Shown here: in pieces, positions 263 to 25,399 of the stretch
Position numbering within the stretch: position 1 is the first letter of the stretch
Layout: each line of letters begins with the position of its first letter
From: Patescibacteria group bacterium
GTDB taxonomy: Bacteria > Patescibacteriota > Patescibacteriia > Buchananbacterales > UBA6539
NCBI GenBank assembly: GCA_041662625.1
Contig: JBAZSB010000003.1
Location: forward strand, 38,552 to 102,551
Length of the DNA stretch: 64,000 nt
Direction of reading: 5' to 3'
The notes under the pieces: generated by a model
What the model was told of the DNA's origin: nothing
Databases searched by the model: none
What the model saw: only the letters and a program-made list of their open reading frames with translations
Translations under genes and position numbers: made by a program

Positions 263-422
263 TAGGCCTTCAAAGTAAATCATAATACTTTGATTATAGC
301 ATAGAATAAGAAATTAAGAAAATAAAAAATTAAGAAATTATTTTAAGGGTAACCCGACTTTGGTCGGCCTTTAAAGCCAACTAAAGTTGGTAGCATTTTA
401 TTGTCATTTGTTAAATATTGAG

Positions 423-1370: not shown

Positions 1371-1393
1371 TTTATTAATGGCCCTAAAAACCC

Positions 1394-1422
1394 TTGCTTT
1401 ATTAGAGGTTTTTCTGCTATAA
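1394..1422 (+). promoter_or_regulatory. sigma70-like promoter (TTGCTT-17-TATAAT, TGc-extended) upstream of the 1485 operon
   Basis: cTTGCTTtattagaggtttttctgcTATAATat read directly from the sequence. Confidence 0.4.
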
Positions 1423-1484
1423 TATACTTAAGTCAAAGTAAAGATTCCTTTCGGATTTTAGCTTTAATTTTAAAGAAAAAAGAG

Positions 1485-2333
1485 ATGGCTTTCCGTAGTG
1501 GAAAAAAAGAAAAGTTTACCATTTTAGAGGAAATTTACCACGATGATACGTCTCCAAAAAAGTCAAAAAGGTTATTTCGGGACTATTTCCAAAACGCAAA
1601 ATTGGTTAATAATCTATTGGTCTCTGGCATTCTTTTTTTTGGCCTAGCCGCACTGGTGCTAGGTTTTTTTCAATTTCGCTACCAAATTAATAAGGATATT
1701 TTTGCTAAATTTCAGCCAAATGCAGCAGTTAGTGGGCCGGAAGATTTATTGGGACTAAAAGATAAAGATACTGACCAAGACGGGCTTTCTGACTATGATG
1801 AACTATATGTTTACCTTTCCAGTCCTTATCTCCAAGATACTGATTCTGATGGCATTAATGACCAAAAGGAAGTAGCGATAGGCAGCGATCCAACTTGCCC
1901 CGAAGGCCAGAACTGTTTTGCCTTTTGGAATCCCGGTTCGGCATCCACTCAAACTAATGATGCCAGCGATTTATTCTTAAGTAATCAGATATCTTCGCTT
2001 CAGTTGCGTGAAACCTTAAAACAAGCAGGAATGACTGATGATGAGTTGGCTCAATTCACCGATGAAGAATTGATGCAGTTATATCAAGAAGCCTTGGCTG
2101 GGATGCAATCAGGCAGTGAACAAACCGACACTGCAGCCGTTGATTTATCAGTGACTAATCCGGCGGATTTGACCCCGGATCAAATTCGGCAATATTTAAA
2201 AGAAGCTGGAGTTTCTAGCACTCTTTTAGATCAAGTCACTGATGAAGAGTTGATGAATCTGGCTAATGAATCTTTAGAGGCGCAAAATCCGGCCGCTTCG
2301 TCAAATCTGTCTAATACGAATGCGAATCAATAA
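1485..2333 (+). CDS. membrane-anchored hypothetical protein with thrombospondin-type-3-like Asp-rich Ca-binding motifs and two internal TDEELM repeats
   Basis: TM helix LLVSGILFFGLAALVLGFF; DTDQDGLSDYDE and DTDSDGINDQKE motifs; repeated xTDEELMxLxxE(A/S)L segments. First gene of the operon encoding the giant protein. Confidence 0.5.
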   Translation: MAFRSGKKEKFTILEEIYHDDTSPKKSKRLFRDYFQNAKLVNNLLVSGILFFGLAALVLGFFQFRYQINKDIFAKFQPNAAVSGPEDLLGLKDKDTDQDGLSDYDELYVYLSSPYLQDTDSDGINDQKEVAIGSDPTCPEGQNCFAFWNPGSASTQTNDASDLFLSNQISSLQLRETLKQAGMTDDELAQFTDEELMQLYQEALAGMQSGSEQTDTAAVDLSVTNPADLTPDQIRQYLKEAGVSSTLLDQVTDEELMNLANESLEAQNPAASSNLSNTNANQ

Positions 2334-2335
2334 AA

Positions 2336-5300
2336 ATGATAAAAGAAATTAAGCCAAAACTGAATTTGCCCGCCGCTACTCAGGAAGCTGACCAAACCAT
2401 TTCAAACAAATGGTTTTTAGCGTTTAAAAAAATCGTCACGGAAGTGGTTCTGGTGAGTATGGTTTTAAGTTTAATTACGCCAGCATTGATCTACCCGGAG
2501 CCGGCACGGGCATCTAATCCAACTGGTGCCCCGCCAGTGACCAAGCAATACCCGCCTAAGCCGACTGAAGTGCAAGTTCATGATGCTAGCGGGGTTAAAG
2601 TTATTCAAGATGAATCAGGTAAGACGCAAGCAGAAGTTAAAAAAGGGACTGATAATGTTACCGAAGCCCAAAAAAAAGATACCAAAGAGCTCACTAAATG
2701 GGAAGTTTTTAAGAAAAATTTGGATAAGATGTACCAGAAGTTAAGAAATGCTGTTAAAGTCGCGGCGGCTGAAGCTTTCAGTTATATGTTGAATACCTTT
2801 GCTTATGATACGGCGACTTGGCTGGCTTCTGGTGGTGAAGGCCAGCAGCCGATGTTTTTTACCGAAGATTGGGGTGAATATTTGACCAATTTGGTTGATA
2901 ACGCGGCTGGTACATTTTTAGAAAAGTTAGGTAACAATAGTTGGATCAATCTTAACCTTTGTACCCCTTCACTCGGCCTTAAAATTAGTATTGGTTTAGG
3001 CTTAGGTAATCTGCGGCGGCCTAAACAGCCAGATTGTACCGTCACTAAGATGATTAAAAATTGGAAGAGCTGGGCCGAGAGTCCTAATTTTTTGAGTCAA
3101 TTTGATGATATTTTTGATCCTAAGAGCAATGATATTGGCATTGCTGCGAAGGCTTTTGGTCTTTATTACCAAAAAGTCGAGGAAGATTGGTTAGCTGGTA
3201 TTTTTAGGCGCAAAGAAGGTGAAGGCTTCAAGTCAGTGGGTGATTCAATCGCCGATACCATTCTTACTCCCGGTACCGTAACAGCTGAAGGCGCTAAACA
3301 ATTAACGCGAACAGAAACCGGGTCAAAAGGGGAAGAAGTTAAAGTTGAGTATGGTAATATTTTCAATATCGCCATCGCGACTTTTATTAATACTTTATTG
3401 GGTAAACTTTTCGAACGATTATTTAAGAAAGGATTAGTCAGTTCAAAGGACGACAAGACCATTGATCTTTCCGGCCTTGGTAACCTTTTGGCCCGAGGGG
3501 CGACTAATCAGGATTTATATACAGGCGAGTCAGGTATTGAACTTTATAGCGGCGAAAAAGCGGCTCGATTACGCTTTCTTGATTTATTGCAAGCCGGTGC
3601 CAAGCAAGGTGGGGCTTATGATGTCTTAACCAAATTAGTTTATTGTTCTGATCCGGAGAATCCCGGACCGGATGAATGTGCGATCAAACAAGATTTTCGT
3701 TCAGCCATAGAAAGGAAATTAACTTTAAGAGAGGCAATTGATCAGGGTTTAATTGATGGCAATGCTCCTTTTGGTTTTATGGATTGGGATGCTAGTGCTC
3801 TTTACCGGGGTATATCTTATCGGAGCATTACGATTTTACGGACTTTTCGTGTGGTTCCAGTCGGCTGGGAAATTGCCGCCCAAACTATAAATAAATTTGA
3901 CCCTGGTAAGACTTATAGCTTGAATGATTTAATTGCTCGCTTCGCGGATGAAAGTTCAGATAATCTTTTCTATGGTTTAATTGACCCAGAATGGGTTTTA
4001 ACCTTGCCTGACCATTTTTGCAAATTGGAAGGTTACGGTTCGAAAGTTGTTTATGAAGGTGTAATTGGTGGTGATGATGCCAATAGTGATGGTGATTTTA
4101 CTGATGCTAACGATGTCCCACCCCAACGGACGGTTGGGCGGGCGGAATACTGCGCGGATTATCAAAGCTGTCTCCAAAAAGACGAGAGTGGTAATTGCCA
4201 GTATTATGGTTATTGTACTGAAGAAAGACGAATTTGGGATTTACAAGGTAAAGGCTGTAAACCCTACTTTAATACTTGTCAGACTTTTCAGCGCAGCGAT
4301 AATAAAGTTTTTAGTTTTTTGGAAAATACCTTGGACTTTAATGGCTGCAGCGCTGATAATGCCGGCTGCCAATGGTATTGTCAGGTCTTTAATCCTAGTA
4401 GTGATATTTGGACCTGTACTAATGAGCATATTGTAATTGATCCGGCCACCGGCGCAATTGATGCTGAACGTGTCTTAAAGCCCTGTAATTTGGCTGGCGG
4501 TTGTCTGGTTTCTACTAGTTGTGAAATAGCGGAAGGTGACAGTAGCTGTGTCGACAACACCAATGGCACTAATCTTTCTATTAGCAATTCTTGTAATTCC
4601 GGGTCAAGATGGTGGGTGGGTGATAAATGTATAATTAATCCTGCTGATGCTTTGTGTACGATTAAGCAGGGTGATGTGGGCTGTACTCTTACTGGCTGTG
4701 AATCGTTTGCTAATTTATTGCTTAATCCAAGTTTTGAAACCGCTGCTTCGCCTGGCAATCTAGCTGATAAATGGAGTACCAGTAGCGGTAGTTTAACTTA
4801 TTTTGAACGCGCAGCCGGGGCCAGTGAAAGAATCCATGCTGGGAAAAATAGTTTACGCTTTTTTAGCTACGGTTTATCTGTTAATGAAACAGTTAGTGCC
4901 GCTGAATTAGAACTACCAGTCGGCAATTATTATACTTTTTCCGGTTACGTTTATGATTATTTAAATGCCGGGGCAATTACTTTGGAAGTGGGAGGAAGTG
5001 GTGTTACCTCAGCTCAAAGCCGGGTGAGCACCAAAGGCAATGGCTGGCAGTTACTAACTTTTGATTTTTTAGTCGATAAGGAGAGTTCACCTGGCAGCGG
5101 CAAAGGAAAAGTTCAAGTAAAAATTATTGTTAGCGGTGATCAGGTCGGCGGGACAGCTTGGTTTGATGATTTCAGAATTACTCAAAGTTGTGTTGTGGAA
5201 AATGTCACTTTAACTTTGATTGGCACTGTTGGCGTCAATGAAAGTAAAATTCATCTAGATCGTGATGCCCAAAGTTGTGATGCCCAAAATGTCGGCTGTT

Positions 5301-8300
5301 CTGAATTAATCCGGACACTCCCGAATTTTGGCACTAATTTGGTGCCTAATTCCAGTTTTGAAGATTGGTCCGATCCTAGCGGCGTACCCCAAGGCTGGCA
5401 AACCGGTGAAAATTGGAACAGCGCTAACACTAGTTTCGAGCAGGCTGAAGGATATAGTGATAACTATAGTCTGAAATTGATTAAAAAAACCATTAGCACT
5501 AATGATGATAATTTTTCCCGAGATTTTGAAATTCCACTTTTTGCTTTAAAGCCCAATACTACCTATCGTGTTTCCTTTATGGCTAGGTCTGACCAAGATG
5601 CGGCTGCTAGTGACAGACTTTGGTATACAGAGATTTTATCAAACCATAATCCTGATTATTATTGCAGTTTGGATCAAGCTGAAAATTGTTACATCGGTAC
5701 GGTAGACGAAAATGAAGCACACTGTACCAGTCTTAATAAAGGGCATTGTGTATTTGATTATGATGGGGTGTTTATAGGCAGCCAGAGATTATTCCCACTC
5801 ACCGACGAGTGGCAGCAATTTGTTTCTGCTTCATTTACGACTCGTCACTTTAGTTATGATTTTAAATTTTCGATTTCGAGTCACTATACTAACCCAGCTA
5901 AACCACTTTATATCGATAATGTTCAAGTTGAAGAAGTGGAAACTAACAATGCGGCCGTTTCTAGTTACAGTGATTATGGCACGAAAAATTTAGTTTATCT
6001 TAAAAAACCGCCGGCCACTTTAGCCTGCCATGGCTATACTATTGACCGACCCAGCCCGGATGTTTTAACTGGTGTCAACCAAACCCAATGTAACGGAGAA
6101 AATATGGTCTGGCGGAAGTTCTGTGCGAATGCGACTGATGCCACTGACGCTGGTGAAGCTTGCACTAATAACGGTGAATGTGACAGCAACAGATGCAATC
6201 CCCAAGGCGCCAACGGCTGTGATGCTTCGGGTCAATTCTGTTGTCATTATACTGATTGGCCCGAGTGTTCTAATTTTGCCATGTACTGTCAGGAAGATGA
6301 AGTGGGCTGCGAACTTTACCGGCCTGTACTTGGCGGTCAGTCAATCCCCGCCAAAGTATCAATTCAAGATTATTGTCCGGCTGAATGCGTGGGTTACGAA
6401 GCTTATAAACAATCAACTAGTCATTTTGAAAGCCAGGAATCTTTGGAGTATTTTATTCCAAAAACAGCTAAAAGTTGTACGGCTAGCCAGGTTGGCTGTA
6501 CTGAATTTACCAATTTAGATGAGGTCGCTCGAGGTGGGGAAGGTAAAGAATATTATCAATATTTGCGTCAGTGCCGTAAGCCGGATCAGTCTGATGCCAA
6601 TTGCCAAAATTTTTACAATTGGCAGGGCTCGGATGAAACTGGTTACCAGTTGAAATTATATAATCTGACCGGCCAAACCCCAAGCGGGGGAGCACCCTTA
6701 GAGGTCAATACTGATCCGACGTTGTGGCCGACTTATTGGTGTGAGGTCAAAACCGATAGTGGTACTAATGGTCCCGATTGCTGTGATGGCCCAGAAGATT
6801 TAGCTGCTAATCCGTTCTGTAAAGAATTTTATGCCGCTAGTGGTGAGATTTATTATCGAATCTATGCCAATACCATCAGCTGCTCGGATGATTGTCATCC
6901 GTTGCGCCAGACGCGTTTGGAAAAAGATGAAAGTTTAGCTCGAGCTAATTGTGATAATACTAAGGGTACATGGGAGGGAGATGCCTGTGTTTATCACGCA
7001 ATACCGCAAGAAGGAACTCGTTGTTCAGCTAGCGCGGCTGGTTGCCGGGAATATCGCGGTAATGCGGGTGGCAATATTTTCACCGCTTTTGCCGATAATT
7101 TTGAATCCGGCGATACAGTTGGTTGGCGTTTTGGCGCCATCAGCAGCGAGGCTTTAAGTATTACCGGCCATTCAATCAAAACCCAATTACTCGGTTCTGA
7201 CACTGATAGTAATGGCACGATCGATACTTATGACAAAAGGGTAGTAACTTCTTGGGCCAGTTTATGGAAAGCCGGAACAACTGAATACATTAACGCTAAT
7301 ATTGTCTCCTGTACTGATACCAATTCAACCGACGTTCCATTTTGTGATACTACTCATACCAGTAATTGTTATGATCTGCAATTGGGTAAGTGTATTGCCA
7401 AGGAAACGGAGAATAATGAGACTTGCTACGTGGCTTTGGGTGAAAAAAGTTGTGGTGTAATGGGTAATGTTTTATTACCTAGTCGGACCTATCTGATTTC
7501 TTTCTGGGCCAAGAATGCCAGTGGGGTGGCAGATATCACCCTTGATTTGCTGGGAGCGGTTGATCCAGCGCCATTAGCTACTATCAGTCTCAGTCCCGAA
7601 TGGAATTATTATAGCCTCGGCCCATTTACTACTAGAGCTCAGCCTGATTTTGACTTAAGCGCCCGCTTGCGTTTCATAGGCTCAGTGAGAGACAGTAATC
7701 CCGATAGCCCTAGTCTTGTTGATTTTTATGTTGACAACGTGGAAATTAAAGAAGTGGCTGATTATGTTTATGTCATTAAGAATTCCTGGCAGACGCCAGC
7801 CAGTTGCGACACTAATCCTTGGACTTTGCCCCAGCCAACTCCCGCCCCGCAATTTATGCTTGGCTGTAAACAATATCTTGATTCTTATAGCCGGACCCAT
7901 AATTTAAAATCTTTTACCAATCTATGCCGCCTTGAGGCCGTTGGCTGTGAAGCTTTAATTGATACCTTTAATTTAACTTCACCTTTTGCCAAAGTCTTTA
8001 ATGAAAATGATGCTAATTCTGATGTCAGTATTCCGGCCGATCGGTTAGTTTATTTGGTCAATCGGACTAATTATCAGTGTCCTTCGACCAAGAAAGGCTG
8101 CCAAGCCGTTGGCCAGCCGACTATTAATGTTAATCAGGAAGCAGTTAATTATAAAACCGCTTATTTAATTAATGATCCCAATCAGTATAGTTCTTCCTTA
8201 TGTTCTAATCCTGAGGTGGGTTGTGAAGAATGGAGTACTGGCAATGGCTTTTCTTATTTCAAAGATCCGGGCCAACGGGTTTGTGAATACCGTTTAGCTC

Positions 8301-11300
8301 CAGGCCAAACTCAATCTAACTGGTTTAAATTTGGTTCAAGCGCTCAAACCGGCGATTGTCCTTTGGTTCAGCCATCCGTTGGTGTGCCACATCCGACTGA
8401 CAACTGGGTTGGCCTCTGTGCATCTGAAGCCAGCTCCTGTAACCAATTTATTGATCCGGTGAGTTTAATGAGTAAGAATTTAGTCTTCAATGCTGATTTC
8501 AAAACTAATGTGGTTACAACCGATACGCCTGATGTGCCGGACGGCTGGCAGGCTAATCTGACGACCGACGGTTTAGTTCAGTCTCTGAGCCTTCAACATG
8601 GTAATTTGTATACCTTGAGTTTTACCAGCAATAAGAATCTTTCTCTGGCAGATAATGATTTACATTTTGAAATTAGGAATTGTCCGCAAATTACTTCTTT
8701 TGATCATTCCTTAAATAACGTTTGTATTAATACTGTTACGGGGGAGCCGGTTCAGCCGCAGAAACTTTGTCAGAGTGATGACAATTGTGATGTGACTAAT
8801 CATCAAATTTGTTCGACTAATGTTTTGGTGATTTCACAAGGGGCTTATACCGGGGATAGTCGGACTTCCACTCAAATCGATAACTTTCCCCAAAATCAGA
8901 TCAGTTATTCTGGCAGAGTTTTTGTCACGCGTGATTGCAACGCTAAAATTATGATTACCAATGTGGGTGGGACGATTGAGAGTATTATTGGTACTGCCGC
9001 TAACAATTATACCGACGGACTGGTCAAAGAAGTAGCCTTAAGAAAAACCGACATTAATTATGTTTTAGCTGATTCGGTTGATAAGCGTAGTTGTAATGGC
9101 ATTGTTGATCCGGAAAGATATTGCGTTTTATTTAATGATCGCAGTGAGGTTAATTATAAATTGGGTGAAGATGACTTTAGTTACTTAGGTTTTGATGCTG
9201 ATGTGAGCGGTATTAATGTCAATAATGGTCTGCCGGTTTTACAATGCGCGGGTAACTGCGATTCTAATGCCGTTTTAAATGTTAGACCCGATCGAACCTG
9301 CGAAACCTGGCTGGCTTGTAACAGTTATGCCACCGTCGTTAACGCCGAAGGCGGGGAAGAAAGGCAGTGTTTAAACCTTGGCCTCTGTAATCTTTTGGCC
9401 GATGACGGTAGCTGTCTTAACTTTTTGGAAACTAGCCACGGCGACGCCCGAAAAGATTTTTATCAAGAACCCGAACAAATCCAAAATCTAAGCGGCTACA
9501 GTAAAGCAGGCTTGGAAGTCAGCGATACCTTTAATAAGACTATTTATGGCTATTACCCTTATGTGGAAATGTCCCAGGAAGGGGGAGCAACTAGTATTAC
9601 TAATAGCAACTTTGATTCAGTCTTTTCCGAAGGCAAAGAGCCGCTGGGTTGGGCCGAGTATGAATCTAAGGACAGCCAAGGTTGGCAAAATTTTAAATAT
9701 ACTATTGGTACTGATTTTAACTCGGCTTTGGAAGGTGGCTATTTGCAACTCAACACTTTTTATCAGGTTGTTTCCGAAGACGTTGATTTGGAAAAAGGAA
9801 CCAATTATATTTTGGGCGGCTGGATTAACACTTTGGAATTAAAGCATAACAACCTTAATGATTCCCAGCTTTTCACTCAGATTTGCTATAAACTTAATAA
9901 TCAGCTTGATTTAACTTGTCCGCCGGAATTGAAAGTTTTTGCTGGTTTAGGTTGGCAATATGTGACGGCGACATTCAACTCTGCTGGTAGCACTGCTTTG
10001 AAGATCGTACTGAAAAATAATGCCGGTGATATTTTGGCTTGTCGTGACGGCCATGAGGATACGGCGTGCGCCATCAGCGGTTATTCTTTGCTTGATGAGA
10101 TTTTATTAAAGCCAGTCTTAAAGGTAAAAAATCAGACTCCTGATAATTTGCGTGATTTTATTGCCCGGAGCTGCCGGCTTTATCCAGATTTTGATTCGTT
10201 AGCCTGTCAGTATTTTGAAGAAAATGTTTTGCATCGTGGTATTTTTGGCTACTGCCTGACGCAAGATCCAAATAATTTAAAACAGTGCCTCCAGTGGTGG
10301 CCAGTTGATCAGATTGGCGGCCAGTTAACGGATGAAATTTTGGCTTATAATATTCAAAGCCCGCTTTATTATTGTGTAGAGAAAGGTGAGAGACAAATCT
10401 TTAGTGAAGATACTGAATTCTCTTTTCTAGTTTCTGATTTTTCCGGTAATTTTACCGATGCTTATGGCCTCAGTGCCCAACTTGTACCTTTTGAAATATC
10501 TGAAGATTATCGGCCAGCTTTTCGTTACCCTTATGTCCGGCAATTTAGTGTTCGCCCCCAAATTTTCCCGCGTAATGATTGGCTTATTCCAGGTGTTGGT
10601 TTTAGACTCCTGGCTTTGGGCGATACGTTAATTGAAGTTAATATTTTTGGTGATCAGGGCCTTAAGAATGATCCTTTTGATTTGACCATTGGCCCAACTG
10701 GAAATAGAGGAATTTTGTTAGCTCCTTGGGGAGTACTAGTTGCGATCCCAGTTGAAATGCTTTACGCTTTTATTGCGGCTGATCATGGAGCATTAGATAT
10801 GGATGCACACTATATTGGAGAAATGAATGAAGGGATTGAGTCTTTGGGTCTTGGTGAAATTTTACCGGATAATGCTGTTGAACTTAATCTTTATTTCATC
10901 TGGTCTTGGCCTAACGGTATAAATCCGGAAAATATCGGGCGGGCCGAAAGTACCATCCAGACTCTGCGGCAAGTTGGTGATATTGCTAAGTTACTTTTAG
11001 CCCTTGGCGGGGCGAGTGCTAATTCAGCTCAACATGATGACGCCTGGGAAGAAGAAGGTGTTCCCGTATTTGGTATTTTGGAGGGAGAGGAGACGAGTCT
11101 CAATATTGTTTTTGGGTCGCTGGTTGGTGTCAAAATAGCGACAGAGCAGGATCCAATGTATAGTGGCATTGCTGAAGATCCGGTACCTGATATCCCGGGG
11201 GATATTTATGGTGGAATAGTAGTGATGGTGGAGGAAACTACCGATGGTGATTTGGCGCCGGGAATGAAACTTGATTTCATACCAAGTGAGGCCAAAGCCG

Positions 11301-12832
11301 GGTATTGCCAGAAACTAGTCCAGGTGGTGACTACGGCCGGCAATAACAAAGCTTGGACTGGTCGGGTTCAGTCGGGTTCTTCTTATATTTTATCTGACGC
11401 TAAAAGCCAAAAGAATTATTTCTTGTATTATGATCCATTTGACTATAATGAAATGCTTGAGGCGGCGGAAGAATGCTATGGTGTATGTAATGTCAATGGC
11501 CAATATTGTGAAATCCTTGGCCCAGGCAGTGAATGTCCTTGTCCAATGGGTGCGCCCCAGCAGATTGCTCAGGAGTGTATGAATGGCAAGTGTTATGATT
11601 GGAGTGGCAGTGATGCCAATACAATACCAACCAGTTATGACTGTACCGGTGATCCTCCTATTACCTTAAATGGAGAGTGTGATACTTATTTGCCTTTGAC
11701 TAATGAAACACCAACCGGAGATTGTATTTTAGATGCCACTTGCATTGGCGGCAAAAAAGAAGGTAATAGTTGCGAGACTGATGATGATTGCACTGATTAT
11801 AGTCCAGCTTGTTTTATCTACCAATCTTCTGATTTTCAGCCATTTGGTGCTATGGTTCCGCCGGCTGAAAGCCAATACCCAGAAAACTGGGATAGCCGAG
11901 TATCCACTTACCGCCAACCATTATTCTATGAACCGCCTTTGATTTCCCTGGCTGAGCCTTATCAGGCACGGATGGGTGAAGATCATACCGCTGACAGCTT
12001 AATGCGAATCTTTTTGAAGACTTATGGTGTCTGGAGCTGGGATGAAGGCGAATCGGATCTAGCAATTGATGACCATTATGAGCCTCTTGATCCTAATGAT
12101 CCTGATGATGCGGTTGATCTTCTGAATTATTCTTGGAATATTGTCAGCGACTGGGATAATACTTCTAAATTTCCGGATGCTGGTTATTGCACCAGTAATA
12201 TTCGGCCAGTTGAACCAACTCCGCCCACTTTGGATGATGTCACTCTTTGCCGCATTCGGCCAATAATTGATCCACTTAATATTTCGATTAATAATAGCCG
12301 CTCGACTGAGATTGGTAATGGTGATCCAGATGCTGTAATCAGCGGGGCCGGTTCGATTAAATTAAGTTTCACGGTCAAAGTTGATCCAAATCAATTGCCT
12401 ATTGGCTCTTACTCCGTAGATTGGGGCGACGGCGAGGTTTCTTCAGTTAATGGTGTTTCTTTGCGTGCCCGGCCCAACGTGGATAATCCTTTAACGTTGT
12501 ACCATGCGTATGATTTCTGGCAATTGCGCCGGCGCTGTAATGATGTAGGAGCATCTTGCACTGATGAGGCGGCCTGGGATGATGGCACCAGTATGCTTTA
12601 CTGCCCGGATGAAAATTCTTGCCGAATAAGATTAAGGATCAAAGTGCGGGATAACTGGAATGCTGAGACCTGCCTACCCGGGTTATCTGAAGTAAATTGT
12701 GCAGTTTCCCGGTGCAATACTTCACTAAGGACTTGTAATTATTCTAATCCTTGTCCCTCCGGCGAACTTTGTTTACCTGACAATAAATATATTCCGTTAT
12801 TAGATTATATCTTAGTCCAGCCAAGGCAATAA
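2336..12832 (+). CDS. giant (3498 aa) Cys-rich secreted/surface protein with multiple CBM4/9-like carbohydrate-binding-type modules
   Basis: Uninterrupted 10.5-kb ORF. N-terminal signal-anchor (VVLVSMVLSLITPALIYPEP). At least 4-5 modules start with N(P/S/A)SFE/NADFK...W...GW, typical of CBM_4_9. Cys-rich segments throughout. Confidence 0.7.
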   Translation: MIKEIKPKLNLPAATQEADQTISNKWFLAFKKIVTEVVLVSMVLSLITPALIYPEPARASNPTGAPPVTKQYPPKPTEVQVHDASGVKVIQDESGKTQAEVKKGTDNVTEAQKKDTKELTKWEVFKKNLDKMYQKLRNAVKVAAAEAFSYMLNTFAYDTATWLASGGEGQQPMFFTEDWGEYLTNLVDNAAGTFLEKLGNNSWINLNLCTPSLGLKISIGLGLGNLRRPKQPDCTVTKMIKNWKSWAESPNFLSQFDDIFDPKSNDIGIAAKAFGLYYQKVEEDWLAGIFRRKEGEGFKSVGDSIADTILTPGTVTAEGAKQLTRTETGSKGEEVKVEYGNIFNIAIATFINTLLGKLFERLFKKGLVSSKDDKTIDLSGLGNLLARGATNQDLYTGESGIELYSGEKAARLRFLDLLQAGAKQGGAYDVLTKLVYCSDPENPGPDECAIKQDFRSAIERKLTLREAIDQGLIDGNAPFGFMDWDASALYRGISYRSITILRTFRVVPVGWEIAAQTINKFDPGKTYSLNDLIARFADESSDNLFYGLIDPEWVLTLPDHFCKLEGYGSKVVYEGVIGGDDANSDGDFTDANDVPPQRTVGRAEYCADYQSCLQKDESGNCQYYGYCTEERRIWDLQGKGCKPYFNTCQTFQRSDNKVFSFLENTLDFNGCSADNAGCQWYCQVFNPSSDIWTCTNEHIVIDPATGAIDAERVLKPCNLAGGCLVSTSCEIAEGDSSCVDNTNGTNLSISNSCNSGSRWWVGDKCIINPADALCTIKQGDVGCTLTGCESFANLLLNPSFETAASPGNLADKWSTSSGSLTYFERAAGASERIHAGKNSLRFFSYGLSVNETVSAAELELPVGNYYTFSGYVYDYLNAGAITLEVGGSGVTSAQSRVSTKGNGWQLLTFDFLVDKESSPGSGKGKVQVKIIVSGDQVGGTAWFDDFRITQSCVVENVTLTLIGTVGVNESKIHLDRDAQSCDAQNVGCSELIRTLPNFGTNLVPNSSFEDWSDPSGVPQGWQTGENWNSANTSFEQAEGYSDNYSLKLIKKTISTNDDNFSRDFEIPLFALKPNTTYRVSFMARSDQDAAASDRLWYTEILSNHNPDYYCSLDQAENCYIGTVDENEAHCTSLNKGHCVFDYDGVFIGSQRLFPLTDEWQQFVSASFTTRHFSYDFKFSISSHYTNPAKPLYIDNVQVEEVETNNAAVSSYSDYGTKNLVYLKKPPATLACHGYTIDRPSPDVLTGVNQTQCNGENMVWRKFCANATDATDAGEACTNNGECDSNRCNPQGANGCDASGQFCCHYTDWPECSNFAMYCQEDEVGCELYRPVLGGQSIPAKVSIQDYCPAECVGYEAYKQSTSHFESQESLEYFIPKTAKSCTASQVGCTEFTNLDEVARGGEGKEYYQYLRQCRKPDQSDANCQNFYNWQGSDETGYQLKLYNLTGQTPSGGAPLEVNTDPTLWPTYWCEVKTDSGTNGPDCCDGPEDLAANPFCKEFYAASGEIYYRIYANTISCSDDCHPLRQTRLEKDESLARANCDNTKGTWEGDACVYHAIPQEGTRCSASAAGCREYRGNAGGNIFTAFADNFESGDTVGWRFGAISSEALSITGHSIKTQLLGSDTDSNGTIDTYDKRVVTSWASLWKAGTTEYINANIVSCTDTNSTDVPFCDTTHTSNCYDLQLGKCIAKETENNETCYVALGEKSCGVMGNVLLPSRTYLISFWAKNASGVADITLDLLGAVDPAPLATISLSPEWNYYSLGPFTTRAQPDFDLSARLRFIGSVRDSNPDSPSLVDFYVDNVEIKEVADYVYVIKNSWQTPASCDTNPWTLPQPTPAPQFMLGCKQYLDSYSRTHNLKSFTNLCRLEAVGCEALIDTFNLTSPFAKVFNENDANSDVSIPADRLVYLVNRTNYQCPSTKKGCQAVGQPTINVNQEAVNYKTAYLINDPNQYSSSLCSNPEVGCEEWSTGNGFSYFKDPGQRVCEYRLAPGQTQSNWFKFGSSAQTGDCPLVQPSVGVPHPTDNWVGLCASEASSCNQFIDPVSLMSKNLVFNADFKTNVVTTDTPDVPDGWQANLTTDGLVQSLSLQHGNLYTLSFTSNKNLSLADNDLHFEIRNCPQITSFDHSLNNVCINTVTGEPVQPQKLCQSDDNCDVTNHQICSTNVLVISQGAYTGDSRTSTQIDNFPQNQISYSGRVFVTRDCNAKIMITNVGGTIESIIGTAANNYTDGLVKEVALRKTDINYVLADSVDKRSCNGIVDPERYCVLFNDRSEVNYKLGEDDFSYLGFDADVSGINVNNGLPVLQCAGNCDSNAVLNVRPDRTCETWLACNSYATVVNAEGGEERQCLNLGLCNLLADDGSCLNFLETSHGDARKDFYQEPEQIQNLSGYSKAGLEVSDTFNKTIYGYYPYVEMSQEGGATSITNSNFDSVFSEGKEPLGWAEYESKDSQGWQNFKYTIGTDFNSALEGGYLQLNTFYQVVSEDVDLEKGTNYILGGWINTLELKHNNLNDSQLFTQICYKLNNQLDLTCPPELKVFAGLGWQYVTATFNSAGSTALKIVLKNNAGDILACRDGHEDTACAISGYSLLDEILLKPVLKVKNQTPDNLRDFIARSCRLYPDFDSLACQYFEENVLHRGIFGYCLTQDPNNLKQCLQWWPVDQIGGQLTDEILAYNIQSPLYYCVEKGERQIFSEDTEFSFLVSDFSGNFTDAYGLSAQLVPFEISEDYRPAFRYPYVRQFSVRPQIFPRNDWLIPGVGFRLLALGDTLIEVNIFGDQGLKNDPFDLTIGPTGNRGILLAPWGVLVAIPVEMLYAFIAADHGALDMDAHYIGEMNEGIESLGLGEILPDNAVELNLYFIWSWPNGINPENIGRAESTIQTLRQVGDIAKLLLALGGASANSAQHDDAWEEEGVPVFGILEGEETSLNIVFGSLVGVKIATEQDPMYSGIAEDPVPDIPGDIYGGIVVMVEETTDGDLAPGMKLDFIPSEAKAGYCQKLVQVVTTAGNNKAWTGRVQSGSSYILSDAKSQKNYFLYYDPFDYNEMLEAAEECYGVCNVNGQYCEILGPGSECPCPMGAPQQIAQECMNGKCYDWSGSDANTIPTSYDCTGDPPITLNGECDTYLPLTNETPTGDCILDATCIGGKKEGNSCETDDDCTDYSPACFIYQSSDFQPFGAMVPPAESQYPENWDSRVSTYRQPLFYEPPLISLAEPYQARMGEDHTADSLMRIFLKTYGVWSWDEGESDLAIDDHYEPLDPNDPDDAVDLLNYSWNIVSDWDNTSKFPDAGYCTSNIRPVEPTPPTLDDVTLCRIRPIIDPLNISINNSRSTEIGNGDPDAVISGAGSIKLSFTVKVDPNQLPIGSYSVDWGDGEVSSVNGVSLRARPNVDNPLTLYHAYDFWQLRRRCNDVGASCTDEAAWDDGTSMLYCPDENSCRIRLRIKVRDNWNAETCLPGLSEVNCAVSRCNTSLRTCNYSNPCPSGELCLPDNKYIPLLDYILVQPRQ

Positions 12833-12835
12833 TTT

Positions 12836-15800
12836 ATGATGGCTAAGTACGGTCAAAAATTAAGAAAGGCAAAATGGCTAATTGGTTTAGTAATAGTTTT
12901 ATTATTTTTCCTGTTTAGCAATTTTGCCTTGGCAGCCGATGAACCTGGTACCGTCGAGAAAGTAGTTGCCGAATTAATTACTTGGATTTGCATGGCTTTG
13001 ATTAAATTTATTGGCGGGTTATTGGCTATTCTGATTAAAGTTTTACTTTGGCTGATGCGCTATAACGGGTTTGTGGTTTCTACAGCCGTGGCCAACGGCT
13101 GGGTGCTGGTGCGTGATATCTCGAATTTGTTTTTTGTTGTTATCTTATTAGGTATTGCCATTGGTACAATTCTGCGGATTGAATCTTATAATTTTAAAAA
13201 GTTGCTGCCCAAAGTTTTAATTATGGCAGTTTTAGTCAATTTCAGCCGAACCATCTGCGGTTTGATTATTGATGCGGCCCAGGTGGTGATGATGACTTTT
13301 GCTGCCGCTTTTGCCGGTAATGTCGGTGAGAAAGCCATAATTGGTCTTTTAAATTTAGATCAAATAGTTAATTCCGAGACCTGGAATCCTCAGCAAGGTC
13401 TCGATCAGATGACGGTCGCTGTCAGTGCGCTTCTGGCAGTTATTTTACTTCTGGTCGCTTTAGTAGCAATTGTGGTCTATATTGCCGTTCTTATGATGCG
13501 GATTGTTTATCTTTGGCTTTTGGTGATTTTTTCACCCCTTGCCTATATTGCTGCGGCTTTTCCCCAAGGTATGGGTTATGCCAAGCAATGGTGGCAGGAA
13601 TTTGGCAAATATGTCATTATTGGGCCTTTGCTTGCTTTTAATCTCTGGTTAGCTTTTTCTATAGCTGGTACTAGTGGTGGTATATCACCATTAGAGTTGA
13701 ATATAACTGAAGCTGAAGGTCAAGAATTAACTACCGCCTATGTCGGTAAAGAGGCCGCAAACCAGCATTTCATCAATGCCATTGGCGGGCCTTATCAGAT
13801 GGTTTCTTTTATTATCGCTATTGCCATGCTTTTTGTTGGGTTAGCTATGATTAATAAAGTCGGGGTGGCGGGTGGCAATTTGGCTAGTAGCGCGATGAAT
13901 AAGATGAGGCAGCTAGGTACAGCGCCTTTTAGAGCCGGAGCTACACTAGGATTAAAGGCGGCTAAATCACCTATAACTGCTTATGCTTGGGGTGCTCGTA
14001 AATTAAAAGCTGGTTCAGTACCTGCTCTGCGTTGGATGAAAGGTGTTGAGTTAAATCCAGCCAATATTTATCGGGATGTCTCTGGCGCCCTTGCCAGAAA
14101 GAAGGTAGAAGATATCCGCCGAGGTAAACTCGCCGCTGGTGAACATTTAAAATCAGGTGGCTTCCGCGGGGCGGTTTTAGGGCTTGGGGCAACCGAGTGG
14201 GGTGATAATTATTTGAAAGGTTTTATGTTTCAGCAGGGAATCAGGCGGGCTATTTATGGTAAGGCCAAGAGGGCAGGAAAATTTACAGAGCAGGCCGAAA
14301 AATATGAAAAAATCGCCGGTCAAATGACAGTTCAAGAAAGACAGGAGGCAGAAATAAAAGAACAAGAAAATTTGGGTAAAGCCCAAGCAATCCGTGGTCA
14401 TCTGAAAAGCAGAGAAGTTGATTTGAATCAACCTGATAATGAATCTTCGCAGTTGGTGAGTCAGTATATTAGCGATTTAGAAAATAATCTTGAAGCCATT
14501 GAACAAGATAGAATTGATGCAAACTCTAAAGGCAATAAGGCTGAGGTAGACAAATTGACTAAAGAAAAAGAAGGAATGGAAAAACAGCTTAAAACTTTGC
14601 GGGGTAAGGCACAAGAAGGAGGGGGAAAAATTAAATTTGATGATCTAGATAACAATACAAGATTATCAATAGAATCGCTTTTAGATGTTAAAGCAAAGGC
14701 ATATGAAGGCGGGGCAAAATCGATCCGTAAAAATATTGATCAAAGAACGCCAGAAGGCAAAACCATCACCGAAAAACAAAGAGAGCAGGCACGAGAAAAA
14801 GCAGATTATTGGCGCAAAAGAGTGGATCGGGCGGCAGCTCTTACCCCTCAAGATGCTTATACTCGTGGTGAACGGCGAAGCGCTTTTGAAGAACAGCGGA
14901 AGTTATTTGGGGAAACAACTAATGAATTTGAATTGATGGCTGCTTTCCGGAGTGCTGTGACGCGGGGTGAATTAACCGAGGCTGGCGGTATTGCTTTACA
15001 ATCAGCCCGGGTCAGTCATTTAAATGAGTTGGTTAATGATACTCGGGCAACACAGGATTATTTTTATGATAAAGAAGGAAGAATTACCACTGACAAAAAA
15101 GAAGCAGATACAAATCGTGGTCGAAATGGGGTGGCTTATGCTAAAGGTGAGAGTTTTAAAGCTGATGTTGACGGTTTACATGCTTTTACGCAAGAAGTTT
15201 TTATGCATCGGCTTGATGCCGGGAAACAAACTGCCCTTTCATTAGAAAATGATTTAAGCAACATTTCCGAAGCTAATAACTGGTGGACATTTGGCCAGGC
15301 AACTTCTGCTGATTCTGCTGGTCTTTTACAGCAGAACGCGAAAGAATTACAACAAACGAGAAGTTACGTTGAAATGACTAAAAGAGATTTTGAAAGATTG
15401 AGCCGGGAAGGTAATCGGGGAGCCTGGATGACAGAAATGTGGATTGATGACGACGACCATTCTAAGGGTCGTAAGGCAATTTTAAATCCGGTTGGCGTGG
15501 TTGGTATGGCCCAAAACTGGGAAAGCATTTTAACTAACTTGCCTCGTGGTCGTTATAATAAAAATAATGCCATTCACATGATGTCAGAAGAGAACCAAAA
15601 GATTTTGGATGCAATCGAAGAGCAATACATCCCGGACTCTAGCAAAAAGAAATGGAAACAGTTCAGAAATGAACTTGAAAAATTTGCCGGTAAAGCGACT
15701 GGTGGAGCCGGAGGATCGTTGGGTGATCGAGTCCGTGAAGAATTGGGTGAAGCCGAAGTAATCAGGCGAACAGCGGCTAAAACACAGCCAGAAGGATTTT

Positions 15801-16366
15801 TAGATTTTGTGGAGGAACACGCCGTCGTGGAAGAACACCCCGTCGTGGAAGAACACCCCGTCTCAGGCCAAGCTTCAGCGGGTCAATCACCGCAAGCACC
15901 GGCAATATCTCCTGGATTAAATTTGTCGCCAGTACCGGCAATACCTTCTGGATTCAATTTGCCGCCTGCTGCTGCTAATAGAGTTGATAATTTAATGGAT
16001 CAAATGGATGATTTAGGAAGAATCTCTGGTCTTGTTAGCGGAGCTTTATCTCCAGAAGAACAAGCAGAAGATCTAGCAAGACTTAATGATGGAATTAGTA
16101 AACTAGCCGATAATATTGAAAAACTTGGCGATCAATTAGGTGATTTAGAGCATTTGGGTAGCGTTAGTCAATCTCTTACTGATTTAGGTAAAGATATTAG
16201 AAGTCAGCAAGGTGCTAGAGGAGCGGCGGATAATCCCAATGAGGCTGTTAAGCTTTTAAGAGAAATTGAGAATACACTTGAAAATTTGCAAATGCAAAGG
16301 TCAGCCGGTGAGGAAAGTCGAGAGGATGAAGATGAAGATGAATATGAAGAATTGGGACCACTTTAG
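12836..16366 (+). CDS. polytopic membrane protein (about 8 TM helices) with a long charged coiled-coil C-terminal tail; VirB6/TrbL-like candidate
   Basis: N-terminal signal followed by multiple hydrophobic helices over about 330 aa. C-terminal about 800 aa is rich in E/K/R/Q coiled-coil and contains EEH(A/P)VVEEHPV repeats. Lies 3 bp after the giant gene. Confidence 0.5.
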   Translation: MMAKYGQKLRKAKWLIGLVIVLLFFLFSNFALAADEPGTVEKVVAELITWICMALIKFIGGLLAILIKVLLWLMRYNGFVVSTAVANGWVLVRDISNLFFVVILLGIAIGTILRIESYNFKKLLPKVLIMAVLVNFSRTICGLIIDAAQVVMMTFAAAFAGNVGEKAIIGLLNLDQIVNSETWNPQQGLDQMTVAVSALLAVILLLVALVAIVVYIAVLMMRIVYLWLLVIFSPLAYIAAAFPQGMGYAKQWWQEFGKYVIIGPLLAFNLWLAFSIAGTSGGISPLELNITEAEGQELTTAYVGKEAANQHFINAIGGPYQMVSFIIAIAMLFVGLAMINKVGVAGGNLASSAMNKMRQLGTAPFRAGATLGLKAAKSPITAYAWGARKLKAGSVPALRWMKGVELNPANIYRDVSGALARKKVEDIRRGKLAAGEHLKSGGFRGAVLGLGATEWGDNYLKGFMFQQGIRRAIYGKAKRAGKFTEQAEKYEKIAGQMTVQERQEAEIKEQENLGKAQAIRGHLKSREVDLNQPDNESSQLVSQYISDLENNLEAIEQDRIDANSKGNKAEVDKLTKEKEGMEKQLKTLRGKAQEGGGKIKFDDLDNNTRLSIESLLDVKAKAYEGGAKSIRKNIDQRTPEGKTITEKQREQAREKADYWRKRVDRAAALTPQDAYTRGERRSAFEEQRKLFGETTNEFELMAAFRSAVTRGELTEAGGIALQSARVSHLNELVNDTRATQDYFYDKEGRITTDKKEADTNRGRNGVAYAKGESFKADVDGLHAFTQEVFMHRLDAGKQTALSLENDLSNISEANNWWTFGQATSADSAGLLQQNAKELQQTRSYVEMTKRDFERLSREGNRGAWMTEMWIDDDDHSKGRKAILNPVGVVGMAQNWESILTNLPRGRYNKNNAIHMMSEENQKILDAIEEQYIPDSSKKKWKQFRNELEKFAGKATGGAGGSLGDRVREELGEAEVIRRTAAKTQPEGFLDFVEEHAVVEEHPVVEEHPVSGQASAGQSPQAPAISPGLNLSPVPAIPSGFNLPPAAANRVDNLMDQMDDLGRISGLVSGALSPEEQAEDLARLNDGISKLADNIEKLGDQLGDLEHLGSVSQSLTDLGKDIRSQQGARGAADNPNEAVKLLREIENTLENLQMQRSAGEESREDEDEDEYEELGPL

Positions 16367-16381: not shown

Positions 16382-17773
16382 ATGACTAATGATCAAAAAC
16401 AAAAAATAAATAATCTGATTAGCAAATTAAATGCCGATTTATCGGATATTAATTTTTTTAAAAAAACGCAGGAAGAACTAACTGATTTAATTGTTCAAAA
16501 CAGCGCAGAGCAAGCTTATTATTTGGCGATTTTTCTGGATTATTTTCTTAAACAAAGAAAAAATTTTGAAAAAGATTATCCACAATTATACCGAGATTAT
16601 CAGACGATTATTAGTAAGGCCAAATGGGTTTGCCTCCCTTTACTTTCGTTGCAAGAGGTTATTGGTTTATTTGAGGAAAATTTGGCTGAAGCTTTGCTTG
16701 ATCCTGATATTGTAGTATGGGAAAAATTAAGGGCATTTTTAGTTGCCCATATTTTACTTGATGAACGCGATAATATCAAAAGGGAACTGAGGGCGACTTT
16801 ATTGAGAAATAATCAAATTTTAACCCAAGGTGATATTATAGCGGAAAATCAATCTCATTCCGGCACAATTAGTAACTGGTTGCGTGATTATAACCAAAAG
16901 TTAGGAGCGGCAAAGTTAGAAAGTAAAAATATTGAATTGTATCAATATATCACTAATGATAGCAATATTAAGAAGTTGAACCCTGAAGAAAGAAGATGTC
17001 TAATTAGTTTATTTACTTTATATGAGAGGCTAAAGGCTTCTTCTTCAGAGGTGGCTGGTTATGAAGGTTCATTAGGCATATCTGATGAAGGAGAAGGTAA
17101 ATTTGCTATTATTTCGGATGGCGAAGTAGTAAGTCTTGATAAGAGATCAGAAAAAATGATTGAGCAAGCACAAGATATCATTGATGTTGCCTTAGGTAAA
17201 AAACCAGCTTCCATTTTGAAAAAATCAAAAGTTGTTGAATCACCAATTCAGTCAGTTGATAATGAACCGCCAAAACAAACGCTGATAGAAAAGGAGATTT
17301 TGGCCGCTTATCAAGGCGACCAAAAACAGCAGCAAGCTATTGCTAAAGAAGAAGCAAAAATCACTAAAAGTTTTGGTACTGACTTGATGAAGATCCGGCA
17401 AGAGTTTTTCCTTGCCGTTCAGAATAAGAATGTTAGCCGCACTATTGCCACTCTGAATATTTTAACTAAACAAAATGATCTGGAAAACTTCGTGAAAACT
17501 GATACTAAATTAAGTCAATTTCTAACCGCGATTTGGGAGAAGCGCTATGGTAAGGAGTTTACTGCCGAGTTTAAACAAAAGCCGGGTCAACTGAAGTTCG
17601 TCCGTTTATTCCTGCGCTATGTTTTGGAAGAACGGTTGGGACTTTCAGTCAGTGAGGCGGCACGAGTGGGCTTACAACTGGGTAATATCTTTGTTAGTTT
17701 GGGCCAGAAAGATTATAATAAAATGGCGTATTTTGATGTTGAGGCGAAAGCTTTTAATTGGTTTGAGGATTAG
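16382..17773 (+). CDS. hypothetical protein (463 aa), last gene of the giant-protein operon
   Basis: Long ORF, no TM helix, no recognisable motif. Confidence 0.5.
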   Translation: MTNDQKQKINNLISKLNADLSDINFFKKTQEELTDLIVQNSAEQAYYLAIFLDYFLKQRKNFEKDYPQLYRDYQTIISKAKWVCLPLLSLQEVIGLFEENLAEALLDPDIVVWEKLRAFLVAHILLDERDNIKRELRATLLRNNQILTQGDIIAENQSHSGTISNWLRDYNQKLGAAKLESKNIELYQYITNDSNIKKLNPEERRCLISLFTLYERLKASSSEVAGYEGSLGISDEGEGKFAIISDGEVVSLDKRSEKMIEQAQDIIDVALGKKPASILKKSKVVESPIQSVDNEPPKQTLIEKEILAAYQGDQKQQQAIAKEEAKITKSFGTDLMKIRQEFFLAVQNKNVSRTIATLNILTKQNDLENFVKTDTKLSQFLTAIWEKRYGKEFTAEFKQKPGQLKFVRLFLRYVLEERLGLSVSEAARVGLQLGNIFVSLGQKDYNKMAYFDVEAKAFNWFED

Positions 17774-24736: not shown

Positions 24737-25399
24737 ATGTTCGATTTCAAGAAGTTATTTATTGATTTACTTTTCCCGATTGAATGTTTAGGCTGTGGTG
24801 AAAAAGAGCATTGGCTTTGCCCCGCCTGCTCAGCAAAAATTGAAATCAAGTTTAAAAACCAGCCGGAAATATTTGCCCCAAATCAGAGTTTAACCGGAGT
24901 TTGGTTAGCTGCTGATTATCGTCAGCCGCTTTTAATTAAAGTTTTGCATACTTTTAAATATAGCTTTGTTGTCTGTCTGGGTCAGGATTTAGCTGAGGTT
25001 TTAATCAGATTTTTGTCATTTAAAATCAAACAAAAAGAAATTTCTGGCTTTGATTTAGTCATTGCTATCCCATTAGCAAAACGAAGGCGACTTTGGCGAG
25101 GCTTTAATCAGGCGGAAATTTTGGCTGCTGAAATCAGTCGGCATTTTAGTTGGTCGAACAAATCAGATTTACTTTTTCGAAAGTATTATAACCGGCCTCA
25201 GGTTGGCTTGAAAGCCGTTGACCGGATCATTAATGTAAAAGGAATTTTCTGTGTTCAGCGTAGTGATTTATTAAAAAACAAGAAGGTTCTATTGATTGAT
25301 GACGTGGTCACTACCGGTGCCACGATGCAGGAATGTGCTAAAGTGATTAAAGAGGCTGGCGCCAAGGAAATTTGGGGATTAGCCGTGGCGCGTGGTTAA
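24737..25399 (+). CDS. comF: ComF-family (ComFC) competence protein, phosphoribosyltransferase domain with N-terminal zinc finger
   Basis: CLGCG...CPAC zinc ribbon; PRTase motif VLLIDDVVTTGATMQECAKVI. Confidence 0.75.
   Translation: MFDFKKLFIDLLFPIECLGCGEKEHWLCPACSAKIEIKFKNQPEIFAPNQSLTGVWLAADYRQPLLIKVLHTFKYSFVVCLGQDLAEVLIRFLSFKIKQKEISGFDLVIAIPLAKRRRLWRGFNQAEILAAEISRHFSWSNKSDLLFRKYYNRPQVGLKAVDRIINVKGIFCVQRSDLLKNKKVLLIDDVVTTGATMQECAKVIKEAGAKEIWGLAVARG

Follow-up and report, generated by a model that had tools for sequence, protein, structure and literature searches.

A 3,498-residue cysteine-rich protein with CBM-like modules, encoded in a conserved T4SS-like gene block of a Patescibacteria group bacterium

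A 64,000-bp stretch of DNA from a Patescibacteria group bacterium (contig JBAZSB010000003.1, hereafter the window) was found to encode a protein of 3,498 amino acids (aa), referred to here as the giant, as a conserved member of a gene block that also specifies components of a type IV secretion system (T4SS). We propose, with a probability of about one half, that the giant forms the extracellular arm of a T4SS-like system of a Parcubacteria/ABY1-type Patescibacterium and acts in the recognition of, or adhesion to, host glycans. This proposal draws on an N-terminal anchor helix, conserved cysteines, domains of the carbohydrate-binding module (CBM) type, packing against both neighbouring genes with gaps of 2–3 bp, conserved synteny, matches of the downstream protein family to TrbL and the pattern of divergence among homologs. 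A considerable part of bacterial diversity falls within the Patescibacteria, whose members apparently live attached to the cells of a host.

The giant gene and the conserved T4SS-like block

The original prediction, made from the sequence of the window, described a single uninterrupted 10.5-kb open reading frame (ORF) free of internal stops and making up about 16% of the window. This description was confirmed: 2336..12832 (+) is one ATG-started frame of 3,498 codons with zero internal stops, occupying 10,497 of the 64,000 bp (16.4%). With a stop probability of 0.066 per codon at the base composition of the window, the chance probability of so long an open frame is ~1e-104. A second, independently assembled Logan contig of 17.9 kb carries an identical 3,498-aa protein with the same neighbours, and many homologs from other assemblies align collinearly with the giant from end to end. 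An assembly chimera, the weakness to which the original prediction had drawn attention, is unlikely because of this identity and collinearity; taken together with the length of the open frame and the conservation of the cysteines, these observations effectively refute the notion of a chimera or of a decayed pseudogene read as a single ORF. The encoded protein is acidic (460 Asp and Glu against 261 Lys and Arg), with a net charge of about -199, and contains 128 cysteines.

The giant gene is closely flanked on both sides. Upstream, a gene at 1485..2333 (+) codes for a single-pass membrane protein of 282 aa with a transmembrane (TM) helix at aa 39-57 and calcium-binding TSP3 repeats (Pfam TSP3_bac, E 1.1e-8), and its stop codon lies 2 bp 5' of the ATG of the giant. 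Downstream, a gene starting 3 bp after the giant's stop (12836..16366, +) encodes a polytopic protein of 1,176 aa with ~10 TM helices in its TM profile and a long charged tail. The window copy of this protein has no Pfam match of its own, 6 of 47 members of its family match Pfam TrbL (PF04610, best E 3.5e-7), and the homolog in locus L003 has a precomputed weak match to TrbL_3; on this basis we read it as VirB6/TrbL-like. The next ORF, 15 bp further on (16382..17773, +), codes for a soluble protein of 463 aa with no assigned function, a homolog of which follows the VirB6-like gene in 14 loci with enough sequence.

Further T4SS genes follow on the same strand: a PrgI/VirB3-like gene (20945-21406, +; Pfam PrgI, E 6e-8), a TrsD/TraC-like gene (21414-22094, +; weak TraC_F_IV match here, PF26593 TraC-like in syntenic loci) and the gene for a VirB4 ATPase (22098-24029, +; P-loop_TraG E 5e-29, AAA_10, DUF87). 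The conserved block is closed by a ComF-like gene (24737..25399, +) coding for a double zinc ribbon and a phosphoribosyltransferase. The homologs expected of a monoderm-type (MPF_FATA-like) T4SS, namely VirB4, PrgI/VirB3, TrsD and VirB6, are thus present in one neighbourhood, TrsD by a weak match and VirB6 by family. The gene content of the window comprises KsgA, the TSP3 protein, the giant, the ~10-TM protein, MetK, a 23S-rRNA intervening-sequence (IVS) protein, PrgI, the TraC/TrsD-like protein and VirB4, as well as the ComF-like protein, RecG in two ORFs, ClpB, LemA and a complete type IV pilus operon with pilins and a prepilin peptidase. A promoter and terminator scan of positions 1-20000 gave counts no higher than in shuffled sequence.

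Synteny was counted over the best 80 genome loci, the denominators being the loci with enough flanking sequence. In 63 of 66 related loci the gene directly upstream, on the same strand, codes for a TSP3 homolog, and a homolog of the VirB6-like protein lies downstream in 37 of 42, with a gap of ≤29 bp in 14 of those. The order KsgA / TSP3 / giant / VirB6(TrbL)-like / PrgI / TrsD / VirB4 / ComF is conserved down to ~34% identity. More specifically, locus L001, with a 73%-identical homolog, shows the same order as the window via MetK and PrgI to the TraC-like gene. The compact locus L004, with a 34%-identical homolog, reads KsgA, TSP3, giant, proteins of 930, 355 and 451 aa, PrgI, TraC-like, VirB4, a 192-aa protein and the ComF-like protein in the same position as in the window. 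The loci of two other distant homologs have the same start of the block. By this test the giant is a conserved member of the cluster, and the T4SS-like module that had been predicted to adjoin it is found in synteny with it, through the VirB6/TrbL-like gene and PrgI-TrsD-VirB4, across deeply diverged Patescibacteria.

The window and locus L001 depart from this compact arrangement. The MetK and 23S-rRNA intervening-sequence protein genes (17909-19641, +) separate the VirB6-like part from the PrgI-VirB4 part in the window; MetK is inserted likewise in L001, and the T4SS genes are contiguous in L004. The ksgA gene, just upstream, is likewise retained, in 56 of 85 loci. It could accordingly be argued that the giant is an independent surface glycan-binding protein, serving attachment to particles or polysaccharides or the capture of nutrients, whose proximity to the T4SS genes reflects an inherited origin-proximal gene order. 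The conservation of ksgA, which is unconnected to secretion, would fit this explanation, as would the location of T4SS genes among origin-proximal housekeeping genes (PMC12102498) and the NCBI name 'carbohydrate binding domain-containing protein', which is given to two family members. We consider it improbable: the gaps in the window are only 2-3 bp, the adjacency is kept at ~34% identity, and MetK and other genes are inserted elsewhere but never between the TSP3, giant and VirB6-like genes in close relatives. A catalytic domain, moreover, was not found in the giant.

Two observations concern the surroundings of the block. RecG is encoded by a wedge/OB ORF (26176-27000, +) and a helicase ORF (27020-28240, +) with 19 bp between them, which is either a real split gene or the result of a frameshift or stop. 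The window also encodes, beside an M48 peptidase and LemA, a second small TSP3-repeat protein of 118 aa (34030-34386, -), whose repeats are of the same TSP3_bac type as those of the giant's upstream partner.

Anchor, cysteine-rich scaffold and CBM-like modules

Hydropathy analysis located a hydrophobic helix near the N-terminus of the giant (aa 26-55; 2411..2500, +). Of 125 full-length homologs, 111 have an equivalent helix, and in none of them does the long middle part of the protein contain a further hydrophobic 19-mer. We read this helix as a signal-anchor. The N-terminal signal-anchor of the original prediction is therefore supported as far as the helix is concerned, but the same segment may alternatively be a cleavable signal with a cleavage site at ARA|S (aa 57-60). 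The C-terminus of the giant (...DYILVQPRQ) has no LPXTG motif.

The helix is followed by an N-terminal core domain (aa ~120-700; 2693..4435, +), partly helical and with a Cys-rich end, which is the best-conserved part of the protein. Neither Pfam nor NCBIfam yielded a match to this domain, including when 59 members were scanned singly, and single-sequence and profile searches of the PDB gave no sequence match. An AlphaFold2 model of the domain, built from a 20-sequence alignment, was poor (mean predicted local distance difference test score, pLDDT, 50.7), with only aa ~429-560 confident, and a Foldseek search of the PDB with this model returned no significant match (best E 2.7). Judged by sequence conservation, the signature of the family is this domain, which is without known family or fold, rather than the CBM modules; the original prediction, with its emphasis on the latter, had missed it.

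The cysteines make up 3.66% of the residues and cluster at aa 601-800, 1101-1700, 1801-2400, 2501-2700, 3001-3200 and 3401-3498, so that the Cys-rich stretches predicted to lie between the modules are indeed found there. Among 18 homologs spanning 73% to ~33% identity, 75 of the 128 cysteines are conserved in ≥75%, and 17 are private, nearly all of them located either in a lineage-specific insert (aa 3047-3159) or at the very end of the C-terminus; those of the insert are kept in 0-2 of the 18 homologs. Two conserved Cys-rich blocks stand out: aa 1215-1577 (5978..7066, +), with recurrent C-x6-C hairpin motifs and most cysteines kept in 16-18 of the 18 homologs, and aa 1813-2044 (7772..8467, +), with cysteines kept in 17-18. 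No Pfam match at E≤10 was obtained for these or the other blocks. The spacing of the cysteines, which had been put forward for checking, is distinctive: 16 copies of C-x6-C are present, where 4.5 would be expected (at most 12 in any of 500 shuffles). The longer motif C-x5-[GS]-C-x-[EQ]-[FLYW] is present in nine copies within the Cys-rich blocks (aa 671, 981, 1318, 1381, 1563, 1864, 1915, 1956 and 2028), those at aa 981, 1563 and 2028 sitting immediately before the segments designated M2, M3 and M4 below, and it may represent a small repeated disulfide hairpin unit without a Pfam family. Given the anchor at the N-terminus and the lack of further hydrophobic segments, the cysteines of the protein are taken to form extracellular structural disulfides, and most of the giant is presumed to lie outside the cell.

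All four opening motifs on which the prediction of CBM4/9-like modules had been based were located, namely NPSFE at aa 797, NSSFEDW at aa 1005, NADFK...PDGW at aa 2052 and NSNFDSVF...PLGW at aa 2423, and an additional motif of the same kind, ADNFESGDTVGW, was found at aa 1586. The corresponding segments are M1 (aa 790-955; 4703..5200, +), M2 (aa 998-1205; 5327..5950, +), M3 (aa 1578-1812; 7067..7771, +), M4 (aa 2045-2240; 8468..9055, +) and M5 (aa 2415-2598; 9578..10129, +); M2 has a Cys-containing insertion and M3 a large Cys-rich one. A whole-protein Pfam scan returned a single family, CBM_4_9 (PF02018), at aa 1001-1089 within M2, with 29.8-30.8 bits and E 4e-7 to 9e-7 against a gathering threshold of 25.9, so the absence of any CBM similarity, which would have told against the prediction, is not the case. 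When the modules were scanned singly, M2 again exceeded the threshold, M3 gave a weak CBM_4_9 match (15.0 bits, E 0.033) and M1 a sub-threshold CBM_6 match only; for M4 and M5 there was no CBM match in Pfam.

The modules are related to each other only at the profile level, as self-BLASTP of the giant at E≤10 revealed no internal repeat. Profiles were therefore built for each module from homologs and compared pairwise by hhalign. Probabilities of 95.9% for M1-M2, 98.4% for M1-M5, 98.2% for M2-M3, 91% for M2-M5 and 87% for M3-M5 were obtained. For M4, the match to M2 reached 62% over the first 30 residues only, and those to M1, M3 and M5 were 15%, 1.8% and 8.4%, respectively. M4 is accordingly not supported as a fifth CBM-like module: beyond the opening motif 'NLVFNADF...PDGW' it failed the whole-domain homology test.

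An AlphaFold2 model of M1-M2 (aa 781-1215, 10-sequence alignment, mean pLDDT 73) shows an all-beta M1 (pLDDT 85-94), a beta M2 with an inserted helix (71-87) and a disordered linker. Searched against the PDB with Foldseek, it gave 291 matches at E≤1e-3, with the CBM22-1/CBM22-2 tandem of Xyn10C (4xup, E 2e-13) and CBM-like domains of GH101 enzymes at the top. Single-domain matches included CBM4-2 (4bj0, 2y6j; TMt 0.73, root-mean-square deviation 3.8 Å), CBM61, CBM16 and a porphyran-binding CBM. Four modules (M1, M2, M3 and M5) therefore have, or are homologous to domains predicted to have, the CBM4/9/22 beta-jelly-roll fold. Of the four or five modules originally predicted, M2 (by Pfam), M1, M3 and M5 (by hhalign) and the fold of M1-M2 are upheld and M4 is not; the count is four rather than five because the similarity of M4 to the others is confined to its first ~30 residues. 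By homology, the four modules would be expected to bind carbohydrates.

Further Foldseek matches of the M1-M2 model were to CBM-like domains of the Cry1, Cry8 and Vip3 toxins and to a mycobacteriophage central fibre. The region beyond M5 bears on the same comparison. A C-proximal cassette at aa ~2700-3150 (10433..11785, +), hypervariable by alignment coverage, by identity to the closest relative and by Cys conservation, begins with 300 nearly Cys-free residues rich in Gly and hydrophobic residues and continues into the lineage-specific Cys-rich insert. It includes a weak hydrophobic segment at aa 2792-2810 (10709-10765), and 7 of 125 homologs, including P0005, P0006, P0012 and P0043, have a strongly TM-like 19-mer (Kyte–Doolittle value up to 2.8) in the same variable region; a second TM segment was thus rejected as a feature of the family. 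These findings could be taken to indicate a toxin-like protein or effector in which, as in Cry and Vip3, the CBM-like domains bring a lytic or pore-forming, Cys-free hydrophobic cassette (aa ~2700-3000) to the envelope of the host. We regard this as very improbable, since the toxin matches are confined to the CBM-like domains of those proteins, the hydrophobic segment is not conserved, the N-terminal membrane anchor speaks against release, and Pfam scans of the giant detected no enzymatic or pore-forming family.

The protein ends with a conserved domain at aa 3151-3450 (11786..12685, +), present in 113 of 150 homologs and marked by the invariant pattern LP...Y..DWGDG...H.Y...DNW. This domain has no Pfam match; a reading of its DWGDG...H.Y motif as PKD was rejected, as neither the window segment nor 24 aligned members matched PKD.

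Distribution, divergence and proposed function

A word-indexed search with aa 1-640 gave one partial match, and the giant could have passed for an orphan; this was overturned by an exhaustive HMMER search with aa 1-1200, which returned 1,296 cluster representatives at E≤1e-3, 944 of them at E≤1e-30. Most of the 150 best listed matches are 2,400-3,900 aa long. One genome per GTDB species was then scanned with two peptide patterns taken from the N-terminal core alignment (the same scan with a single sequence as query gave no match), and 502 species-level Patescibacteria genomes were found to encode a confirmed relative. The best 80 of these 502 are titled Buchanan-, Falkow-, Kerfeld- or Uhrbacteria, Parcubacteria or Patescibacteria group, apart from ~20 implausibly titled third-party-annotation metagenome-assembled genomes. 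The closest ones, whose N-terminal cores show 58-63% identity, bear the titles Candidatus Buchananbacteria or Patescibacteria group bacterium, Buchananbacteria being placed in the Parcubacteria group by NCBI.

The implausible titles comprise eighteen 'uncultured Gammaproteobacteria', one 'Tangfeifania' and one 'Zixiibacteriota' (L011, L017, L019, L026, L029, L031, L037, L040, L041, L047, L050, L060, L062, L065, L071, L073 and L077-L080). All twenty records carry a Patescibacteria-type giant gene, with the KsgA/TSP3/VirB6-like order where flanks are present, and their titles are probably wrong or the bins contaminated. In one Buchananbacteria genome (L018, 8750-10258) the N-terminal-core ORF is only ~500 aa long from stop to stop, which could reflect disruption of the gene or an error in sequencing.

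The coverage of each region was assessed by BLASTP of the whole giant against the best 150 homologs. The N-terminal core (aa 150-700) was aligned by 98-99% of them, aa 1300-1600 by 83-92%, aa 1750-2050 by 79-87%, aa 2250-2650 by 76-86% (76-84% for M5) and aa 3150-3450 by 47-78%. Coverage fell to 26-39% at aa 700-950, 1050-1300 and 1650-1700, to 49% at aa 1600-1650, and to below 10% at aa 2750-2950, the rest of the cassette being aligned by ≤20%. The closest relative, P0002, is 64% identical to the giant overall, unevenly spread: identity is 70-90% in the N-terminal core and the Cys-rich scaffold blocks, 32-45% in M2 (aa 1001-1200), 30-34% in M3 (aa 1601-1800) and 20-49%, with large indels, at aa 2700-3200. 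The number of recognisable modules, a comparison among relatives that the original prediction had called for, ranges from 1 to 6 among 124 full-length homologs. Divergence focused in M2, M3 and aa 2700-3200, together with a varying module number, is what would be expected of a ligand-recognition surface.

The same figures can be read in favour of a structural role, and this is the main rival to the proposed host adhesion. The giant might be an envelope-spanning subunit of the T4SS, with the N-terminal domain docking onto the VirB6-like protein and VirB4, the stalk replacing the missing VirB7/9/10 or VirB8, and the CBM-like modules binding glycans of the bacterium's own wall or S-layer and so securing the machine in the envelope. 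Such a role would agree with the near-universal alignment of the N-terminal domain, the tight packing with the VirB6-like gene, the 70-90% identity of the Cys-rich scaffold blocks and the rarity with which VirB8 and the outer components are detected in T4SS loci from candidate phyla radiation (CPR) bacteria (PMC12102498). We consider it a serious possibility, although on balance unlikely. A core subunit with a purely structural task would not usually have hypervariable cassettes and a varying number of modules, an extracellular stalk of ~2,800 residues seems longer than a monoderm envelope would need, and no similarity to known T4SS structural proteins was found in Pfam, PDB or Foldseek searches. 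The structural and host-adhesion roles are not mutually exclusive. The independent surface protein, the toxin-like effector and the assembly artefact are, in this order, progressively less likely.

Based on these observations, we propose the following mechanism for the extracellular arm. The single N-terminal TM helix would hold the giant in the cytoplasmic membrane, with the N-terminal domain near the membrane, where it would probably contact the VirB6/TrbL-like channel protein and the TSP3-repeat protein. The remaining ~2,800 residues would project outward as a strongly acidic stalk of conserved Cys-rich blocks, probably braced by disulfides, along which the four CBM4/9/22-like lectin modules would be spaced and which would end in the hypervariable cassette and the conserved C-terminal domain. 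Binding of the lectin modules and variable cassette to glycans or other structures of the host-cell envelope would then dock the T4SS, and the neighbouring ComF and RecG functions, onto the host.

Several points weigh against this mechanism. CBM-like jelly-rolls occur also in toxins, phage fibres and enzymes, and the suggestion that these particular modules bind sugars comes from fold and homology. The best conservation lies in the N-terminal domain rather than in the lectin modules, which fits a structural subunit equally well. Pfam and PDB sequence searches gave no similarity to PrgB or other known T4SS adhesins. Lastly, conserved gene order would by itself be weak evidence of functional coupling and does not prove it, because the housekeeping gene ksgA is conserved in the block as well.

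A bolder version of the proposal, which we put forward as rather doubtful, would make the giant an obligatory and hitherto unrecognised extracellular T4SS subunit of ABY1-type Patescibacteria. Its N-terminal domain would bind the VirB6-like and TSP3 proteins, its lectin stalk would reach the host, and glycan recognition at the tip would be coupled to channel opening for uptake of DNA or nutrients, comF and recG being close neighbours, or for delivery of effectors. If this holds true, the giant would be the element for contact and specificity that is missing from the Patescibacteria T4SS. More generally, the giant would be a concrete candidate for host recognition in uncultivated ABY1/Parcubacteria lineages, in whose loci a published survey detected no adhesin. 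Host range could be tracked through the variable cassettes, and hosts might be guessed from glycan-array screens of the CBM-like modules, which can be expressed singly. The N-terminal domain (aa 120-700), for which neither a known family nor a solved structure is matched, lends itself to structure determination.

Other surface genes and comparison with known systems

Other genes of the window may also contribute to the cell surface. A second large ORF (36186-40049, +) codes for 1,287 aa with an N-terminal TM helix, no Pfam match and 8 copies of 'NVGIGT-x-P-x2-KLDV-x-G', and the next gene (40146-41954, +) codes for 602 aa with 24 cysteines and a myxo_disulf_rpt match. The two genes immediately precede the type IV pilus operon, and their products may be pilus-associated surface proteins. 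At 51289-55372 (+), a YfhO-family membrane protein and a TMEM260-like/PMT_2 protein O-mannosyltransferase are encoded amid five N_methyl pilin-like genes and the prepilin peptidase, which suggests glycosylation of pilins or surface proteins.

Both CBM-type modules and the existence of T4SS in these bacteria were already known. The T4SS genes of the window compare well with the published Patescibacteria T4SS (PMC10633639, PMC12102498), sharing VirB4, TrsD, PrgI/VirB3 and VirB6-like genes and likewise having no relaxase or coupling protein nearby. In class ABY1, comF and recG lie beside the T4SS with KsgA nearby (Quinonero-Coronel et al., PMC12102498), and the window has the same three genes around virB4. 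In monoderm (Gram-positive-type) T4SSs, surface adhesins do the work of pili, and the survey of CPR T4SS detected no adhesins in its dataset (PMC12102498). The experimentally studied Patescibacteria T4SS belongs to Saccharibacteria, a lineage other than that of the window; in the Saccharibacterium Southlakia epibionticum, the one species tested genetically, epibiotic growth strictly requires the T4SS as well as several envelope proteins that bind polysaccharides (PMC10633639). What the T4SS does in these bacteria has been termed 'completely unknown' (PMC11665869). The main texts of Wang et al. 2023 (PMC10633639) and Quinonero-Coronel et al. 2025 (PMC12102498) describe no giant CBM-bearing conserved neighbour, and the literature searched held no description of the giant family, its N-terminal signature domain, its mosaic of Cys-rich blocks or its fixed place heading the T4SS block in ABY1/Parcubacteria-type genomes.

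The modules themselves share the beta-jelly-roll common to CBM4, CBM9 and CBM22, exemplified by CBM4-2 of Rhodothermus marinus Xyn10A and the CBM22 tandem of Paenibacillus barcinonensis Xyn10C. Like these, they begin with N-x-[SD]-F-[EK]...G-W and end with a Y-[IV]-D-[ND]-[VI] strand, and the M1-M2 model superposes on them. Unlike these examples, they are found without a glycoside hydrolase, inside a membrane-anchored, Cys-rich protein of 3,498 aa; M2 and M3 carry Cys-rich insertions, and identity to solved CBMs is 13-18%.

Among proteins of T4SS clusters, the giant is most readily compared with PrgB, the aggregation substance of pCF10, which is likewise encoded within a monoderm-type (MPF_FATA-like) T4SS cluster, large, surface-exposed and expected to play a role in cell-cell contact. 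The giant is roughly three times the size of PrgB. It differs from PrgB in that it has no similarity to PrgB domains, is Cys-rich, carries CBM-type modules and has an N-terminal TM anchor instead of an LPXTG wall anchor.

A second comparison is with the giant adhesins of the RTX/Bap type, such as SiiE and LapA, which are likewise acidic surface proteins of several thousand residues and are thought to bridge to another surface; in the locus of the giant, a calcium-binding TSP3-repeat partner is encoded alongside. Unlike these adhesins, the giant has no tandem Ig-like repeats and no RTX or type I secretion system signal, and it is instead an N-terminally anchored, non-repetitive mosaic of unique Cys-rich blocks.

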